Part shown: positions 1 to 7,564 of the stretch, one piece after another
Layout of the letters: every line of letters begins with the position of its first letter
Numbering within the stretch: the first letter of the stretch is position 1
Origin: Ignavibacteriota bacterium
GTDB lineage: Bacteria > Bacteroidota > Ignavibacteria > Palsa-1295
Direction: 5' to 3'
Assembly: GCA_963787835.1 (NCBI GenBank)
Contig: CAWBEI010000002.1
Coordinates: 160,001 to 224,000 of the forward strand
DNA length: 64,000 nt
The notes under the pieces: model-generated
What the model was told of the DNA's origin: nothing
The model's input: only the letters and a program-made list of their open reading frames with translations
Databases searched by the model: none
Translations under genes and position numbers: made by a program

Positions 1-152
1 TGTATGGCATCGACGGTGCCATTTTCTTGGCTAACCGAGACATCGGTAACAGCGACTATTGCGCCTTCCTGTGCCAAAAGAATGGCCGTTGCACGGCCAA
101 TGCCCAACGCTCCACCGGTTACGATCGCTACTTTATTCTTTACTCTGTTCAT
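1..152 (-). CDS. SDR family oxidoreductase, N-terminal part (runs off the window edge)
   Basis: Manual translation of the minus strand from ATG at 152: MNRVKNKVAIVTGGALGIGRATAILLAQEGAIVAVTD, containing the TGxxxGIG Rossmann motif. Not in the supplied ORF track. Confidence 0.9.
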   Translation of the reverse strand, partial: MNRVKNKVAIVTGGALGIGRATAILLAQEGAIVAVTDVSVSQENGTVDAI

Positions 153-189: not shown

Positions 190-258
190 CAAAAATACGG
201 TGGCAACCTTCAAAAAACGTTGCAAAATTTTGGAAAAGAGTTACATAATTCACACATT
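190..258 (-). promoter_or_regulatory. Promoter of the SDR gene: TAnnTTTG -7 element plus tandem GTT(A/G)CA(A/T)AAT box (site 1)
   Basis: CAAAAATA at 190-197 (reverse complement TATTTTTG); GTTGCAAAAT at 219 and GTTACATAAT at 240 (21-bp period), then TCACACATT. Confidence 0.75.
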
Positions 259-301
259 CTCATCTAAAGCCTTGAAATGGGTATGATGCCTTCCTTTTCA
301 T

Positions 302-514
302 CTACCAATTTGTCCGCCGCCGAACAGATTTTCGGACTTCCTCCTCACCCTGCTCTGAAAAAGTTCTTCGCAGAGCAAATCTCGTCTTCATCTGATGTTC
401 AAGTAATGAGTGGATATCCTCATTCGAGATCGGATTCTCGTCCTTTTCGTGAGCGGTATTACCATCCTGTGCCGGCGGTTGGTTTTCTTCAGTTTTTGAT
501 GGTTCGTTGTTCAT
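302..514 (-). CDS. Small charged hypothetical protein (70 aa)
   Basis: ATG-started ORF downstream of motif site 2 on the same strand; no recognisable domain. Confidence 0.5.
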   Translation of the reverse strand: MNNEPSKTEENQPPAQDGNTAHEKDENPISNEDIHSLLEHQMKTRFALRRTFSEQGEEEVRKSVRRRTNW

Positions 515-633
515 TGCGTTCAGGTTGATTGAAGAACACGCGTTATCGTATGTTCAAAAAGATTGAAGATTGCGCTCGCGTGGGTTATTGAAGCAATGTT
601 AAACCCGTTGAAACAATCACGATTACTACAAAA

Positions 634-702
634 CAAAATTACGGCAATGGCCTTCAAAAGAGGTTACAAAATTTTAGAAAAAAGTTACAAAATTCACACA
701 TT
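634..702 (-). promoter_or_regulatory. Promoter with TAnnTTTG element plus tandem GTTACAAAAT box (site 2)
   Basis: CAAAATTA at 634-641; GTTACAAAAT at 663 and 684; TCACACATT follows. Confidence 0.75.
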
Positions 703-805
703 TGCTTTTCTGACAGCACTGGCTGTAACGAAGTGGAAATCCTTACTGTTGGAACCATCCTAATCATTAGATAAAAAAATTCTTAATACCTAATCCCAAT
801 CTTTT

Positions 806-1903
806 ATGCTGACGGAAATAGCGGTAGCGGATCCAGTGGCAGACCTCATCGTGTTGCAACCGCAGCAGCGACATTATCTCATTCCTATTGCTATTGCGAG
901 CGTGGTGGTCATCGGAGTGCTGCTTCATTTTGTCAGCAATATCTTTTTGTCCATTATTACCGCGCTGTTCCTGGCAAATATCTTTATGCCGCTCGTCAGC
1001 GGGCTTCGCACACGGAAGGTGCCGATGATAATCTCAATTTTATTGGTGCTGGCGCTGGTTGGCGGCTTGTTCTTTGGAATTGCAAAAATTATCGGCGTGA
1101 CGGTTGAATCCATCATTCTCGTGATGCCGAAATACGAAGCAAAGTGGGAAAATGTATTATTGCCCCAAATCGCGGGGATCCTTGGGAACATCTCCGATGG
1201 CATGAGGAAGCAAGCGATGGATTTTAATCTGACATCCCTTGTACCATCTAACGAGATGGGTTCAGCGCTTTCTTCCGCCACGAATCTTGTGAGCGGCTTT
1301 GCTATTATTCTTCTAGCGATGCTTTTTATTTTAGCAGCGAATGGCCAGTTTAAGAAAAAGATCGGAATAGCATTTCCGAAATCAGGTTCGTTACAACTCA
1401 CGCAGATCATACAAAACATTGAACGAAGCGTTCGGCGCTATTTAGTTACAACACTGATCCTGAACACTTTAGCCGCAGTCACAATGACCGTTGTTCTGCT
1501 TCTTTTTGGTGTCGATCTTGCGTTCCTGTGGGGCATCCTGACTTTTTTACTGATGTTCATACCCACCTTTGGCGGATTATTTGCTATTGTACTGCCCGTC
1601 TTAGCAGCATTCCTGCAATTCGACACCGTAAGCACTCCGATTCTTCTTGCCATCACGGTGATCGTGACTCAACTTATGATCGGCAGCGTTCTTACTCCGC
1701 GCGTAATGGGTTCGACGCTCAATATTAGTCCCTTGCTTATTATTGTATCGATCATTTTCTGGGGATGGGTATGGGGACTGCTTGGGATGATCCTTGCCGT
1801 GCCGATCACCTCGACCATCGCCATCGTCTTTCAAAACATTCCCGCTCTTACGCCAATCGCGGTGCTGATGAGCACCGATCCGGGAAAAGTCCGTTGGTAT
1901 TAA
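806..1903 (+). CDS. AI-2E (PerM/TqsA) family transporter
   Basis: 365 aa, multi-TM; family-typical motifs FIPTFGG and PRVMGSTLNISP...WGWVWGLLGMILAVP. Confidence 0.9.
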   Translation: MLTEIAVADPVADLIVLQPQQRHYLIPIAIASVVVIGVLLHFVSNIFLSIITALFLANIFMPLVSGLRTRKVPMIISILLVLALVGGLFFGIAKIIGVTVESIILVMPKYEAKWENVLLPQIAGILGNISDGMRKQAMDFNLTSLVPSNEMGSALSSATNLVSGFAIILLAMLFILAANGQFKKKIGIAFPKSGSLQLTQIIQNIERSVRRYLVTTLILNTLAAVTMTVVLLLFGVDLAFLWGILTFLLMFIPTFGGLFAIVLPVLAAFLQFDTVSTPILLAITVIVTQLMIGSVLTPRVMGSTLNISPLLIIVSIIFWGWVWGLLGMILAVPITSTIAIVFQNIPALTPIAVLMSTDPGKVRWY

Positions 1904-3549
1904 AAACCAACAACCTTACCGATGGATTTACGGAGTGCTAACCATATGAATTGGAAGAACTCTTCATCTCTCGAATAGATATAGGTGGTTGTTCCTGAGA
2001 TCGCTTTGTTGTTCCCGTTATCGACGTTATTCGTGCGAAGCACAAACGTATTCGCAATAAATGATTGAATGCCTTCGAAAATACCGCTGTGATCTTTGAC
2101 TTTGGTTGTAAGCACATTCATTGAAACATCTTCATAACGCGGTGCGACCGTGGTTATTCCAGTTCCAGCGTGAACATCCATTTGTAATGCTCCGCCTAAA
2201 CATTTTCCTTTCATTATCTCTTTTCGCTCGTTCGTAACGAGATAGGAGTTCAGAGACGTTACATCGAACGGCCCGACGGTTGCATCGATGTGAAGATCGA
2301 ACTGCTTTTGATGTACCGGATACACAACCGTCCCCAATACTTTTCCTTGCCCCATAAAAAATGCACTGACCGCAAAATGCAGGGGCTCGCTATAAAGCGA
2401 ACTTCTAGTATCGGTACAGAATGGATGCTCAATAACTCGGACTTGCGTAAACGTTAACAAGCTTGCGTGGGTACTTCCCGTGACACGTTCCCGGTGATGA
2501 ATCGTCCCCTTGTTGAAAATGATCGAATCGAGCGTGATGGGCGCTTTGATCGAACTAATGACCACATTGGGCAATACTGCATTCGGAGGGTGCGGATTTT
2601 TCGGTTTGCGGAGATCGCCATAGTAGTCCACGAACCATGATTCTGCCTCCAGTGACCGGACATGAAGCCCACCGCCCGCGAGCAGCTTCGTGAAATTGAT
2701 GCCGCGAATATGTAATCCGGTACATTGGAAATCCAGCCTTCCCTGGGCATATTGATGCAGATCGGCAAAGGCTTGTTCGCTATAATTGGGCTTGTACTCG
2801 AAACTATCGATCGTTACAAGCGAATCCGATAAACTACCGTGGATACCTCGAACTTCGATAGAATATGTGCTATCGCCGATAGAATAGCTCCCGGTAGGGA
2901 GTTCAAATCCTGCATTCTTAGAGAACAGTGCCGATTCGCCAGCGTTGCGACTTGGATCGAGAGAAAAATCGGTTAGCCGGATCGTAATGTTTCGATAAGA
3001 TGGCACCATGTCATTTCCGGATGTCTTCGGCAGGAACACACTAATATCACGTAAGACAATACTATCGAACGAGATAACGGGCACATCCGAAAGCGCAAAT
3101 TTCTTCGCTGCAACGAATTTTGGAATGCGTGGTAGCGTGATCCCCGTATCAATATCGGTCATGTATAGCTTTGGTGCGTTCAGCTCCAGGGTGCTCAAGT
3201 TCAAATCTTTTTGCCAGAGCACGTCCCACCAATCGATGCCTTCGAACCTCGCGCTATCGAGCGTGATCCGTTCGAGCACCACGCCATGCTCACCGCTATC
3301 GTAGGCGATGCGGTAAAGAATGAAGGTATTGCACTCCAGCGTGCCATGCTTGTAGAAGATCTTATCTAAGGTAAGTGCAAACCTGCCGTGCGTTGATTTC
3401 AGCACAGCTTGTTCTATTTTTGGAATGACGGCTTTATTAAGTGTACTTTCAAAATAGAAGGTGAGAAAAACCCAAATTGCAAGCAACACCACAACAACGA
3501 TCGAGCCGAACGTGTAGAGGATCGGCTTGAGTAGCGATCGTTTTTTCAT
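1900..3549 (-). CDS. AsmA/DUF748-like membrane-anchored beta-rich protein
   Basis: N-terminal TM anchor, repeated beta-strand segments, C-terminal FFQFIWLALRKSI amphipathic motif of the kind seen in Bacteroidota DUF748-like proteins. Confidence 0.6.
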   Translation of the reverse strand: MKKRSLLKPILYTFGSIVVVVLLAIWVFLTFYFESTLNKAVIPKIEQAVLKSTHGRFALTLDKIFYKHGTLECNTFILYRIAYDSGEHGVVLERITLDSARFEGIDWWDVLWQKDLNLSTLELNAPKLYMTDIDTGITLPRIPKFVAAKKFALSDVPVISFDSIVLRDISVFLPKTSGNDMVPSYRNITIRLTDFSLDPSRNAGESALFSKNAGFELPTGSYSIGDSTYSIEVRGIHGSLSDSLVTIDSFEYKPNYSEQAFADLHQYAQGRLDFQCTGLHIRGINFTKLLAGGGLHVRSLEAESWFVDYYGDLRKPKNPHPPNAVLPNVVISSIKAPITLDSIIFNKGTIHHRERVTGSTHASLLTFTQVRVIEHPFCTDTRSSLYSEPLHFAVSAFFMGQGKVLGTVVYPVHQKQFDLHIDATVGPFDVTSLNSYLVTNERKEIMKGKCLGGALQMDVHAGTGITTVAPRYEDVSMNVLTTKVKDHSGIFEGIQSFIANTFVLRTNNVDNGNNKAISGTTTYIYSRDEEFFQFIWLALRKSIGKVVGF

Positions 3550-3597
3550 TTTTGTAACGGTAGGATTATTCAGCGAGTGGCTAATTTACCACCAGTA

Positions 3598-3666
3598 CAA
3601 AGATATGAAATTCAACCGAAAGACACGTTACAAAATTTTAGGAAAAAGTTACAAAATTCACACATT
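3598..3666 (-). promoter_or_regulatory. Promoter with TAnnTTTG element plus tandem GTTACAAAAT box (site 3), overlapping the AraC stop codon
   Basis: CAAAGATA at 3598-3605; GTTACAAAAT at 3627 and 3648; TCACACATT is the reverse complement of the last AraC codons. Confidence 0.75.
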
Positions 3667-4218
3667 CTCAAGTCCACCCATCCTTTTATGCTTGATATTC
3701 TTAAAAAAGGTAGGAGTGAGTCCGGTGATCTTCTTAAATTGATTCGAAAGCGCTGCTACGCTGCTATAATGAAGCCTGTACGATATTTCTGTGAGCGAAA
3801 GCTCGTCGTAAATAAGCAACTCCTTTGCTCGTTCGATCTTATGCTTGATAATGAATTGCTCGATCGTCGTGCCCTCGACTTCTGAAAACATATTGGCAAG
3901 ATAGGTATAGTCGTACTTTAACTTTTCGGTTAGGTGATCGGACCAATTTATTCTCAGTGCTTCGTCGGAATAATGGATGGTTTCGATGATAACCTGCTTG
4001 ATCTTTTCGATCAAAATAGCTTTCTTATCATCCATCAGCTCCAGCCCGGACCGTTTTAAGACACGGGTCAATTCGATGCGTTGCGCCGGAGATATAGGTC
4101 CTGGAATCTCCACTTCTCCAAGATCGACGGTGGTATAAGGAAGGCCGAGGGTTTCTAACTCGGCGATCACCACCATCTTGCACCGGATGCTCACCATGTA
4201 CTTAACGTACAGCTTCAT
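3658..4218 (-). CDS. AraC family transcriptional regulator (Bacteroidota 'YMVSxRC' type)
   Basis: N-terminus MKLYVKYMVSIRCKMVV; C-terminal double HTH (LSLTEISYRLHYSSVAALSNQFKKITGLTP). Confidence 0.92.
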   Translation of the reverse strand: MKLYVKYMVSIRCKMVVIAELETLGLPYTTVDLGEVEIPGPISPAQRIELTRVLKRSGLELMDDKKAILIEKIKQVIIETIHYSDEALRINWSDHLTEKLKYDYTYLANMFSEVEGTTIEQFIIKHKIERAKELLIYDELSLTEISYRLHYSSVAALSNQFKKITGLTPTFFKNIKHKRMGGLENV

Positions 4219-5341: not shown

Positions 5342-6736
5342 ATGGAACGAAACGGTCATCCAACAGATACGAACGGGACGATGGAAGCACGCTGGTCTAA
5401 TTCACCGGAATTGCGCGGCGTGGGAATCCCTCTGGCAAAATACAATTTCCCGAAAGACCAGCGCCGGTTAGGCGGCGATTTCACCGTGGAGCAGAATGTC
5501 GGCCAACTGCTTCGATTTTTCCTCTTCGAGCGGAATATCCTTCGAGCGATGGCCGGCTGGGGAATGGGCACACCGGAGTTCGAAGTAAAGGTCGAGTTCG
5601 GGCGGCATATCTATTATCATGCAGAAGCAGGAATGAAGATCCGTACCCGGCTTACGGAACTCCGCATGGCTGAAGAAACAACGGATAAGTTTCAGTCCGA
5701 TGAGATCGCCGAGTTATTCAATGAGTTGATCCTTTCCGAAAGCCCGGCACACTTTGTCGCCGCATTATATGGAGTAGTGCTACCACATTTGAAACGGGCG
5801 TATCAGGAACATTCCGCACACACCGATCAGGTTGCGGACGCCCCAACGGTTCGGATCATCCATCAGATCATGCCGGATTACGATGCGATGATAGCATGGG
5901 GTAAAGGTGCGATCGAAGCATATATTCAAGGCGGATACAACGAGGGCGGTCTGCACAAGTGGCAATATCACATCGAGAAGCTGCTACGCTCTTTTGGGGG
6001 AGTCGGCGGTTCTGCCGAACGTGGTAAACGGCCAGACTCACTTCGTTCTGCGGGCAAGCCGCCGTTCGAGCGCTCCTTCATCGCTACCCGCGATCCGCGC
6101 TTCGATACTTTTGAAGATACCTATGATTATCAGGTTGGCGATGATGGCCGGTTAGGCTACGAATCAGAGTTCGACAAGACTCGCCTGAATCTCGTCCGGT
6201 CACAACGCGATGAAATGGACGCCATCGAAACGTTCGCAAATGTACTCTATGAGATCCGCAATGTGCCATTTGGATTCGATTACGATATTGCCCGTATCAT
6301 CTGGGATGAAACGCGCCACACCGAACTTGGCCACAAAGCGATGGAAGCCCTCGGGTATGATCCTTATGATCTCTTAAATCGCCTCATTGGTATCAAAGTA
6401 CGCACAAAGTTACCGGCTGTGTATTCGCTGGCAGAGATCAATCTGTTCGGCGAGGCCAACATTGTGCAGGAATGCCTCCGCTATGCCCGCGAAGCATACG
6501 AAAAGGGTGACGACCTGACGGGACGCCTCTTCGATTTCGTCAATGCCGACGAGCGTACCCACATCAGCAAAGGCGTTCATTGGCTAAAGCATATCTTCAA
6601 GACCGATTCCGTGCAGGAGATCGAACAAAAAACGAAACAGATTGCCATCGACCGCCTGCTCGAACTCGGCATTATTGATCACGAAGTCGCGTTAACCATT
6701 TCGCACCGGGAACTGGCGAAAATCATTGGGGAATAA
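5342..6736 (+). CDS. Tandem ferritin-like domain protein (C-terminal DUF455-type putative di-iron domain)
   Basis: C-terminal DEMDAIE...WDETRH...GEAN...ADERTH metal-ligand pattern; the N-terminal helical domain has a degenerate RHIYYHAE. Start moved to ATG 5342, which has GAGGA upstream. Confidence 0.75.
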   Translation: MERNGHPTDTNGTMEARWSNSPELRGVGIPLAKYNFPKDQRRLGGDFTVEQNVGQLLRFFLFERNILRAMAGWGMGTPEFEVKVEFGRHIYYHAEAGMKIRTRLTELRMAEETTDKFQSDEIAELFNELILSESPAHFVAALYGVVLPHLKRAYQEHSAHTDQVADAPTVRIIHQIMPDYDAMIAWGKGAIEAYIQGGYNEGGLHKWQYHIEKLLRSFGGVGGSAERGKRPDSLRSAGKPPFERSFIATRDPRFDTFEDTYDYQVGDDGRLGYESEFDKTRLNLVRSQRDEMDAIETFANVLYEIRNVPFGFDYDIARIIWDETRHTELGHKAMEALGYDPYDLLNRLIGIKVRTKLPAVYSLAEINLFGEANIVQECLRYAREAYEKGDDLTGRLFDFVNADERTHISKGVHWLKHIFKTDSVQEIEQKTKQIAIDRLLELGIIDHEVALTISHRELAKIIGE

Positions 6737-6751: not shown

Positions 6752-7564
6752 TCATTTCAAAATAGCCTCTAATCCTTTGCAGCCATTTTTCACGGCAAGG
6801 TCATACGGTCGATCACCCGCATCATCTTTCACATTCTTGTTCGCTCCATATTCCACAAGTAGGTGTGCTGCTGAAGTATCGCACTGCTTAGCGGCTTGGT
6901 GTAAGAACGTGTCACCATTCTCATAGTGTATAGACGGATTTGGTGTGGCACCAAACTTTAATAATATCTGAATAATTTGGAGATCGTTAGCGCGACGTGT
7001 GTCACCAGTAGTATCATGTTGTTCGATTTCGATATCCTTCTGCTTTAGTGTATTCATTCTGTGACTCTCGGAAAGAGCGAACCAGAGTGGCGTAATGTTA
7101 TGTGGAGCAATAAAATTTGGATTGGCTCCATTGTTAAGAAGGAAGAAAATCATCTGAATATTTCCTAAAAAGATCGACTGTATTAGAGGTGTTATACCAG
7201 ACGAGTCTGGAAGATCCACACTCAGCCCGTGTTCAATTAGATATTTTGCGGCAATAAATCTATTAATCGATACGCAGTGACCAATTAGCGATCCACCGAG
7301 AGTTGGGCAACGTGATTGAATATCAGCGCCGTGATTTAAAAGAATATTAATCATTAAAGTATCATCCTTATCTACTGCCCACTCTAAAGGACTGCTTCCG
7401 AACTGGTCTCGTTCATTTGGATTTGCACCCTCGTTTAGCAATTTTTCAACAAGCTGATAATTTTGCCTGTTTATTGCACGATCAAGAAGCGGCGGCTCTT
7501 GCGAACGCGAACATACAGTACAGACTATGAGCAAGAAAAAACAAATAATAATTTGACGCATCAT
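6752..7564 (-). CDS. Secreted ankyrin repeat protein
   Basis: Signal peptide; several ankyrin repeats (GSSPLEWAV, GITPLIQSI, GDTFLHQAA, GANPN). Confidence 0.9.
   Translation of the reverse strand: MMRQIIICFFLLIVCTVCSRSQEPPLLDRAINRQNYQLVEKLLNEGANPNERDQFGSSPLEWAVDKDDTLMINILLNHGADIQSRCPTLGGSLIGHCVSINRFIAAKYLIEHGLSVDLPDSSGITPLIQSIFLGNIQMIFFLLNNGANPNFIAPHNITPLWFALSESHRMNTLKQKDIEIEQHDTTGDTRRANDLQIIQILLKFGATPNPSIHYENGDTFLHQAAKQCDTSAAHLLVEYGANKNVKDDAGDRPYDLAVKNGCKGLEAILK

Follow-up and report, generated by a model that had tools for sequence, protein, structure and literature searches.

A repeated promoter element in an Ignavibacteriota genome is the likely operator of an adjacent HMA-AraC activator

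A 64,000-nucleotide stretch of an Ignavibacteriota genome (the window; C2:160001-224000) carries, near its left end, the gene for a small AraC-type regulator with an HMA-like N-terminal domain and three copies of a tandem-repeat element followed by a −7 promoter box. The host genome (G000) comprises 3.57 Mb and is 97.9% complete; L001 is its locus record. The features, in window positions, are as follows.

1..152, minus strand: SDR-family oxidoreductase of 255 residues, 5′ part, which leaves the window; first gene after site A (Pfam adh_short_C2, E 1.3e-68 for the full gene).
190..197, minus strand: site A −7 box (TATTTTTG), read from the sequence; predicted transcription start near 185, by way of the box position in PMC9723704.
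219..258, minus strand: site A operator (predicted); proximal half-site 219-233, distal half-site 240-254, TGTGA box 250-254.
302..514, minus strand: 70-residue open reading frame (ORF), first after site B; one 67%-identical homologue among the fetched loci (L006).
634..641, minus strand: site B −7 box (TAATTTTG), read from the sequence; predicted start near 629.
663..702, minus strand: site B operator (predicted); half-sites 663-677 and 684-698.
806..1903, plus strand: AI-2E family transporter, divergent from site B and not faced by it (Pfam PF01594, E 3.5e-48).
1900..3549, minus strand: 549-residue protein with an N-terminal hydrophobic segment, first after site C; link to DUF748 weak.
3598..3605, minus strand: site C −7 box (TATCTTTG), read from the sequence; predicted start near 3593.
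3627..3666, minus strand: site C operator (predicted); half-sites 3627-3641 and 3648-3662, the TGTGA box containing the regulator stop codon.
3658..4218, minus strand: the regulator, 186 residues, with an HMA-like domain (residues 1-62, MVSxRC) and an AraC DNA-binding domain (Pfam HTH_18, E 4.7e-16).

The three parts of the element were checked against the letters. CAAAnnTA, which is TAnnTTTG on the transcribed strand, starts at 190, 634 and 3598. Paired GTT(A/G)CA(A/T)AAT repeats with a period of 21 base pairs (bp) start at 219/240, 663/684 and 3627/3648; at all three sites the box and the first repeat are 29 bp apart start to start, leaving a 21-bp gap. The tail, TCACACATT, starts at 250, 694 and 3658, and at site C (3658-3666) it forms the last codons and the stop codon of the regulator gene. 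Read on the transcribed strand, TGTGA-N4-TGTAAC is followed after 6 bp by another 15-mer, of which TGTAAC alone is kept, and after a further 21 bp by TAnnTTTG. The half-sites are thus 15 bp each (15+6+15 bp), the distal one full and the proximal one with TGTAAC alone conserved. The coordinates, the 29-bp and 21-bp spacings and the three segments described in an earlier note on this DNA were all exact. The sites also face the SDR gene, the 70-residue ORF and the 549-residue gene as that note had said. Its label "DUF748-like" for the last of these is weak: the protein has no Pfam match even at E<=1, and a 42%-identical homologue matches DUF748 below the cut-off.

A first matrix was built from the three window sites with the −7 box left unscored. 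Among 7.1 million positions on both strands of the host genome, it gave six matches at 51.4 to 54.8 bits, and the next best scored 17.1. The three additional sites lie at C2:154475, 154906 and 157633, 2.4 to 5.5 kb left of the window, and each has a CAAAnnTA 29 bp off, though the box did not contribute to the score. A broader matrix found the identical six (38.6 to 42.9 bits; next 16.4), with a maximum of 14.7 bits in the block-shuffled genome. Neither matrix found a seventh site in the remainder of the 3.57-Mb genome. The earlier note had proposed a three-site regulon; its three window sites stand, and the total rises to six. All six share one orientation and are clustered in 9.2 kb ending at the regulator gene.

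Mean pairwise identity among the six sites is 0.95-0.97 in the repeats, 1.0 in the tail, 0.86 in the spacer and 0.83 in the −7 box; it is 0.43 in the 21-bp gap and 0.28-0.36 in the flanks. A 40-bp core that is 86-100% identical with its spacer included, the shared orientation and the overlap of one copy with a gene end would also fit relics of a duplicated or mobile cassette, or recombination sites, with no regulatory role. However, identity in the gap and flanks is close to random, whereas the spacing of the −7 box is preserved. In relatives, only the boxes are conserved across Bacteroidota, and the sites precede gene starts and track the regulator. Recent cassette duplication was rejected because the gap and flanks are near random, and we assign a nonregulatory origin almost no probability.

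The −7 box allows the element to be placed relative to transcription. In a study of Flavobacterium psychrophilum, the TAnnTTTG box lies at −12 to −5 (PMC9723704). From that position, the half-sites would fall at about −69/−55 and −48/−34. All six boxes in the host genome are canonical TAnnTTTG. The Flavobacterium promoter consensus is given as TTG-N17-23-TANNTTTG in bioRxiv 10.1101/172254; by that consensus, none of the three window sites has a TTG at the 17-23-bp spacing. A scan for E. coli-type promoters found 10 against 8.7 expected, which is chance level. The proximal half-site borders the place that a −33 element would occupy, as might be expected if the AraC protein were a repressor or dual-role binder and not an activator. 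Such a role is very unlikely, as no part of the sites extends downstream of about −34 and their orientation and distance are constant. Moreover, the missing −33 TTG in the window sites and a −7 box that is often suboptimal elsewhere are expected of activator-dependent promoters.

Conservation was followed in the best 80 of 109 confirmed loci in the genome collection, which are Ignavibacteriota or Candidatus Kapaibacterium records at 82-90% identity and mostly Bacteroidia at 59-70%. The matrix from the six host sites, which had not been trained on these loci, gave 113 matches in 53 of the 80, compared with 4.7 in local shuffles. An iterated matrix trained on the same loci gave 198 matches in 73/80 (shuffles, 0-2). 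A site overlaps the regulator stop codon in half of the loci (40/80). The 121 nonredundant sites of the more distant, mostly Bacteroidia, loci have the distal half-site consensus TGTGATTTATGTAAC, and the proximal half-site retains only TGTAAC. The gap from the repeats to the −7 box is fixed at 20-21 bp in the relatives' loci, and the unscored −7 core AAAnnT stands at one of two offsets in 97 of the 121.

Two further kinds of locus were observed. Plasmids of Runella rosea and Chondrinema litorale (L176 and L177) also bear the regulator gene with motif sites, in one case next to a gene for an ice-binding protein; the island can therefore reside on plasmids. A variant element, in two tandem copies at L144:5575 and 5714 (G004), stands beside a divergent Cys-containing paralogue.

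Co-occurrence at the genome level was scored with a strict pattern, and homologues with E<1e-80 were counted as close. Among 61 relatives, the pattern was found in 20/20 genomes with a close homologue, 3/17 with only distant ones and 1/24 with none; the lone positive genome without a homologue is 70% complete. A reversed-pattern control gave 0 in all groups. In a phylum sample of 201 genomes, each at least 90% complete, the pattern occurred in 28/111 genomes with the family and in 0/90 without it. (A second phylum sample gave identical genomes and was used for loci alone.) The strict pattern recovers just 67/121 known sites, and its absences are therefore soft. The earlier note had proposed to look for co-occurrence of motif and AraC subfamily; these counts support it, and three genomes considered below do not fit.

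Distant homologues of the regulator were of two kinds. One consists of NMVCxRC proteins encoded beside P-type ATPase and CopZ-like genes; these proteins contain an MxCxxC motif and matched a CopZ-like profile at 97% probability in hhalign. Proteins of the second kind are mostly Cys-poor; next to their genes lies one for a lone receiver, and frequently also one for a PAS kinase. In a quick, unrooted tree, 21 copper rows split from 70 others (SH-aLRT 97), and the 70 include Cys-poor and seven CxxC forms. An HMA gene was located within 1.5 kb in 19/21 copper rows, nine of which are circular in this count because the HMA profile came from them, compared with 1/70 others.

The copper paralogue provided a natural control, in which the region behind each regulator gene was scanned with a repeat-only matrix. 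A site was found behind 35/62 genes of the SxxC (stress-clade) form, and of these sites 22 contain TGTGA exactly and 29 are followed by a −7 box 20-21 bp away. Above the same score were 9/29 CxxC genes, none with TGTGA. Half of the copper-clade rows (11/22) scored better than shuffles (p<0.05), and their sites typically precede copA or copZ-type genes. Helix 6 is nearly identical between the clades, while helix 3 differs. The simplest reading of these sequences would be that the family binds TGTAAC repeats and the stress clade adds TGTGA. Since the copper paralogue shares the repeats in a different gene context, the repeats are tied to this protein family. At L093-L111, L113 and L164, CxxC HMA-AraC genes lie directly before copA/copZ-type genes and have TGTAAC/TATAAC 21-bp repeats of their own; these loci likely constitute a copper regulon.

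The regulator has an AraC/XylS-type double helix-turn-helix (HTH), for which Pfam HTH_18 scored 59.3 bits against a cut-off of 33.6. In Foldseek, its C-terminal domain matched that of AraT (E 7e-5) and also MarA and SoxS. An AlphaFold model (mean predicted local distance difference test [pLDDT] score, 89.7) places an N-terminal domain before a linker helix and the AraC domain, and residues 1-62 are predicted to follow a beta-alpha-beta-beta-alpha-beta order (block pLDDT, 91-95). The nine-protein CopZ-like profile aligned with residues 2-61 in hhalign (88% probability; E 2.7e-6), placing MVSIRC upon the MxCxxC loop. ESM Atlas returned only unnamed clusters under 0.9 for the N-terminal part and AraC clusters for the whole protein. 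The family comprises 1,080 clusters at 50% identity with E<=1e-30. Helix 6 of this regulator has Ala at residue 156 (window 3751-3753), where 83% of 76 aligned relatives have His.

The two-cysteine MxCxxC site is not present in the regulator: Ser replaces the first Cys in 95% of the 76 aligned proteins, and Cys13 is invariant in them. Judging from the alignments, M..RC is a remnant of the HMA metal-binding loop. The earlier note had suggested that M..RC might sense metal or redox state. Because the first Cys is Ser, a pair of cysteines is unlikely to chelate Cu(I) directly. The input is probably a single-thiol or protein-partner signal rather than copper chelation. A stand-alone receiver domain is our leading guess for the partner, with a co-inherited cupin as the second. 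Among 15 longer homologues chosen from the 150 matches listed, there were one receiver fusion and one PAS-kinase fusion, which may be read-through artefacts. Two runs of complex prediction for the regulator with the cupin scored 0.00, which has no bearing either way.

Several results weigh against the reading of the element as an operator of an HMA-like AraC activator. Pfam PF00403 (HMA) gave no match to the regulator, and the Foldseek HMA matches were nonsignificant (E 0.06-0.3). Seven of the 80 loci have no site at all, and none lies directly behind 27/62 SxxC genes. Eight of 24 phylum genomes with a close homologue gave no strict match; five of these eight have matrix sites beside the gene, one has the CxxC form and two are outside the locus set. 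The sampled relatives share kinship and are not independent, so that Fisher values overstate the association. Beyond the closest relatives, most −7 boxes depart from TAnnTTTG, usually by having C, G or A in first place, and the strict form occurs in 10/121 sites of the more distant loci. Finally, three genomes of one other family, G071 (98% complete), G075 (94%) and G080 (92%), have 4-5 strict sites each, at 28-40 bits, dispersed before Usp, OmpA-like and similar genes. No stress-clade regulator was found in these three, only the copper-clade paralogue. Possible reasons are gaps in the assemblies, cross-activation from the paralogue and involvement of some other factor; the operator reading by itself does not explain them.

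Conserved sites in those three genomes, each of which has 5-7 LytTR genes, are what one would expect if a different DNA-binding protein recognized the TGTGA box or the whole element, with the AraC gene no more than a co-inherited member of the island. The LytTR family binds direct repeats of 21-bp period, and the distal half-site looks like the Crp box, TGTGA-N6-TCACA. However, there was no LytTR (PF04397) match in G000 or G006 and no Crp HTH (PF13545) over the cut-off in G000, for all its 97.9% completeness. Crp/Fnr and LytTR proteins were rejected as binders in the host genome, as neither was found there. In addition, other regulator families each recur in at most 9/81 loci, the repeats also stand beside the copper paralogue in its different gene context, and none of the 90 phylum genomes without the family has the pattern. 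We therefore regard a different binder as unlikely. The departure of the −7 box from TAnnTTTG beyond the closest relatives, together with an RpoD-like paralogue in 9/81 loci, would suit a further explanation, namely that an alternative sigma factor, acting alone or together with the AraC protein, accounts for the element. However, tblastn with the paralogue found one RpoD-type gene in G000, on another contig, and all six boxes there are canonical. Conserved boxes reaching to about −69 with a 21-bp period also extend beyond known sigma-factor contacts. An alternative sigma factor was rejected for G000 given the one RpoD-type gene found there, and the chance that one explains the element is very slim indeed. 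The paralogue itself, a 287-residue RpoD-type protein at L023:8764-9627 and at 8 other loci, is often found with a cold-shock gene in Flavobacteriaceae islands and could relate to the noncanonical −7 boxes there.

The operator reading is supported by co-location, genome co-occurrence, the repeats shared with the copper paralogue and the finding of no Crp or LytTR candidate in G000. We conclude, from sequence comparison, that the element is real and quite probably serves the neighboring HMA-AraC activator as its operator. This supports the proposal of the earlier note that the AraC subfamily has an operator beside a −7 box of the Bacteroidota type. The six elements would act as activator-dependent promoters bound by the 186-residue protein, two molecules of which would occupy the half-sites head to tail. 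Recognition helix 6 would read TGTAAC and helix 3 TGTGA, an assignment that we infer. As in class II activation, the proximal molecule would touch the primary sigma factor, substituting for a −33 element, and an island of genes with likely general-stress and envelope roles would be turned on. The N-terminal domain presumably shares ancestry with that of the CxxC paralogue beside copper-export genes, its first Cys having become Ser here.

Comparable AraC-family systems include AraC at araI1-I2 and RhaS. At Pm, XylS recognizes a pair of 15-bp repeats, and its helices 3 and 6 read the boxes A and B that each repeat contains (section 4 of PMC5481539); another AraC activator uses two 15-bp blocks (PMC4514859). 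The present system is like XylS at Pm in its two-HTH AraC-type domain, in two 15-bp direct-repeat half-sites, about two helical turns apart, with 5′ and 3′ boxes and in a proximal site predicted to abut the polymerase-binding region. It differs in its box sequences, its Bacteroidota TAnnTTTG promoter and its noncatabolic targets; in addition, XylS has 321 residues and a cupin-type sensing domain, whereas this regulator has 186 residues and a 62-residue HMA-like domain. MarA, SoxS and Rob are small AraC-family proteins that drive enterobacterial stress regulons and act as monomers on one box. The regulator resembles them in size, in likely stress targets and in the Foldseek matches to MarA and SoxS, but it has a tandem half-site pair and an additional N-terminal domain. 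That domain shares with the HMA domains of CopZ, Atx1 and GolB the predicted beta-alpha-beta-beta-alpha-beta order and an M-x-[SC]-x-x-C loop. With the CxxC paralogue the system shares TGTAAC repeats 21 bp before the −7 box; unlike HMA domains and that paralogue, it has Ser for the first Cys, an added TGTGA box and an HMA neighbor in 1/70 stress-clade rows.

The proposed mechanism would work like AraC/XylS class II activation; its operator, HMA-like sensor and regulon were not found in the literature listings searched. The titles and abstract openings in them showed no paper on the regulator or motif and none on the copper paralogue. Such promoters could be present among the start sites tabulated in PMC9723704. 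The CxxC (likely copper-sensing) and SxxC clades, with their related operators, offer a natural pair for sensor and DNA-site divergence.

The first genes after the three window sites encode the SDR protein (then YceI), the 70-residue ORF, which has no significant match in a Pfam search, and the 549-residue protein. Those after the three left-hand sites encode YceI (then a cupin-like protein, an lmo0937-family membrane protein and YtxH), a 67-residue basic peptide and OmpA. Operon membership is suggested by gene order. No site lies upstream of the regulator gene itself in G000; several Bacteroidia loci do have one. Among 106 first downstream genes in the relatives' loci, 50 were chosen by hand for Pfam. 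These gave OmpA (four), ice-binding (two), kinases (two), CsbD, Usp, OsmC and Band 7, as well as AI-2E, DUF2383, YceI, SDR and cold-shock families, and many had no family. AI-2E family genes thus do follow sites in other loci. With lmo0937 and YtxH downstream of the G000 sites and CsbD, Usp, OsmC and DUF2383 among the relatives' chosen genes, the targets likely resemble general-stress and envelope genes. Against this, the stress label comes from family names only, and many of the targets match no known family. Through the motif, numerous small genes that lack annotation fall into a single testable regulon.

General stress regulons are governed by SigB in Bacillota, by RpoS and by EcfG/PhyR, and we take the target families here to overlap their kinds of target. 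Shared families are lmo0937, YtxH, CsbD, Usp, OsmC, Dps-type ferritin and SDR. Unlike those regulons, this one would use an AraC activator at primary-sigma promoters, and its targets are clustered in islands. We know of no described general stress regulator for Bacteroidota, and none was found in the literature searched. It is conceivable, although we lean against it, that a general stress response in free-living Bacteroidota has HMA-AraC as its master activator, with a SigB/RpoS-like gene set at primary-sigma promoters, and that this protein derives from a copper-sensor architecture minus one Cys, with a changed recognition helix and a receiver/kinase or cupin input. In any case, the analysis names a candidate regulator for an apparent stress-survival program across Bacteroidota, together with a precisely defined operator and a list of targets.

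The most constant neighbors are a cupin-like protein (48/81 loci) and a short CsbD-looking protein without a Pfam match (31/81). In the host genome, the cupin-like gene (L001:11562-11975; C2:156562-156975) is single-copy, with a Pfam score below the cut-off. A close form of the cupin occurs in 15/20 genomes with a close regulator homologue and in 0/41 others. A histidine kinase and a lone receiver are encoded at L001:237-2330 and 2327-2800 (C2:145237-147800), and this pair is a candidate for the island's input. The N-terminal half of the kinase (L001:237-2330) consists of about 20 tandem 21-residue coiled-coil-like repeats, with no recognized sensor domain. Upstream of the pair, L001:2842-4125 encodes a 427-residue protein that contains charged internal repeats, belongs to no Pfam family and has homologues in 3 loci. 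Two similar segments of about 140 bp (L001:7070-7200 and 7248-7400) resemble a degraded 3′ part of the adjoining gene for a 169-residue protein. Within the window, a 464-residue protein with a DUF455 (ferritin-like) domain is encoded at 5342-6736, after a long AT-rich intergenic stretch, and is not linked to the motif.

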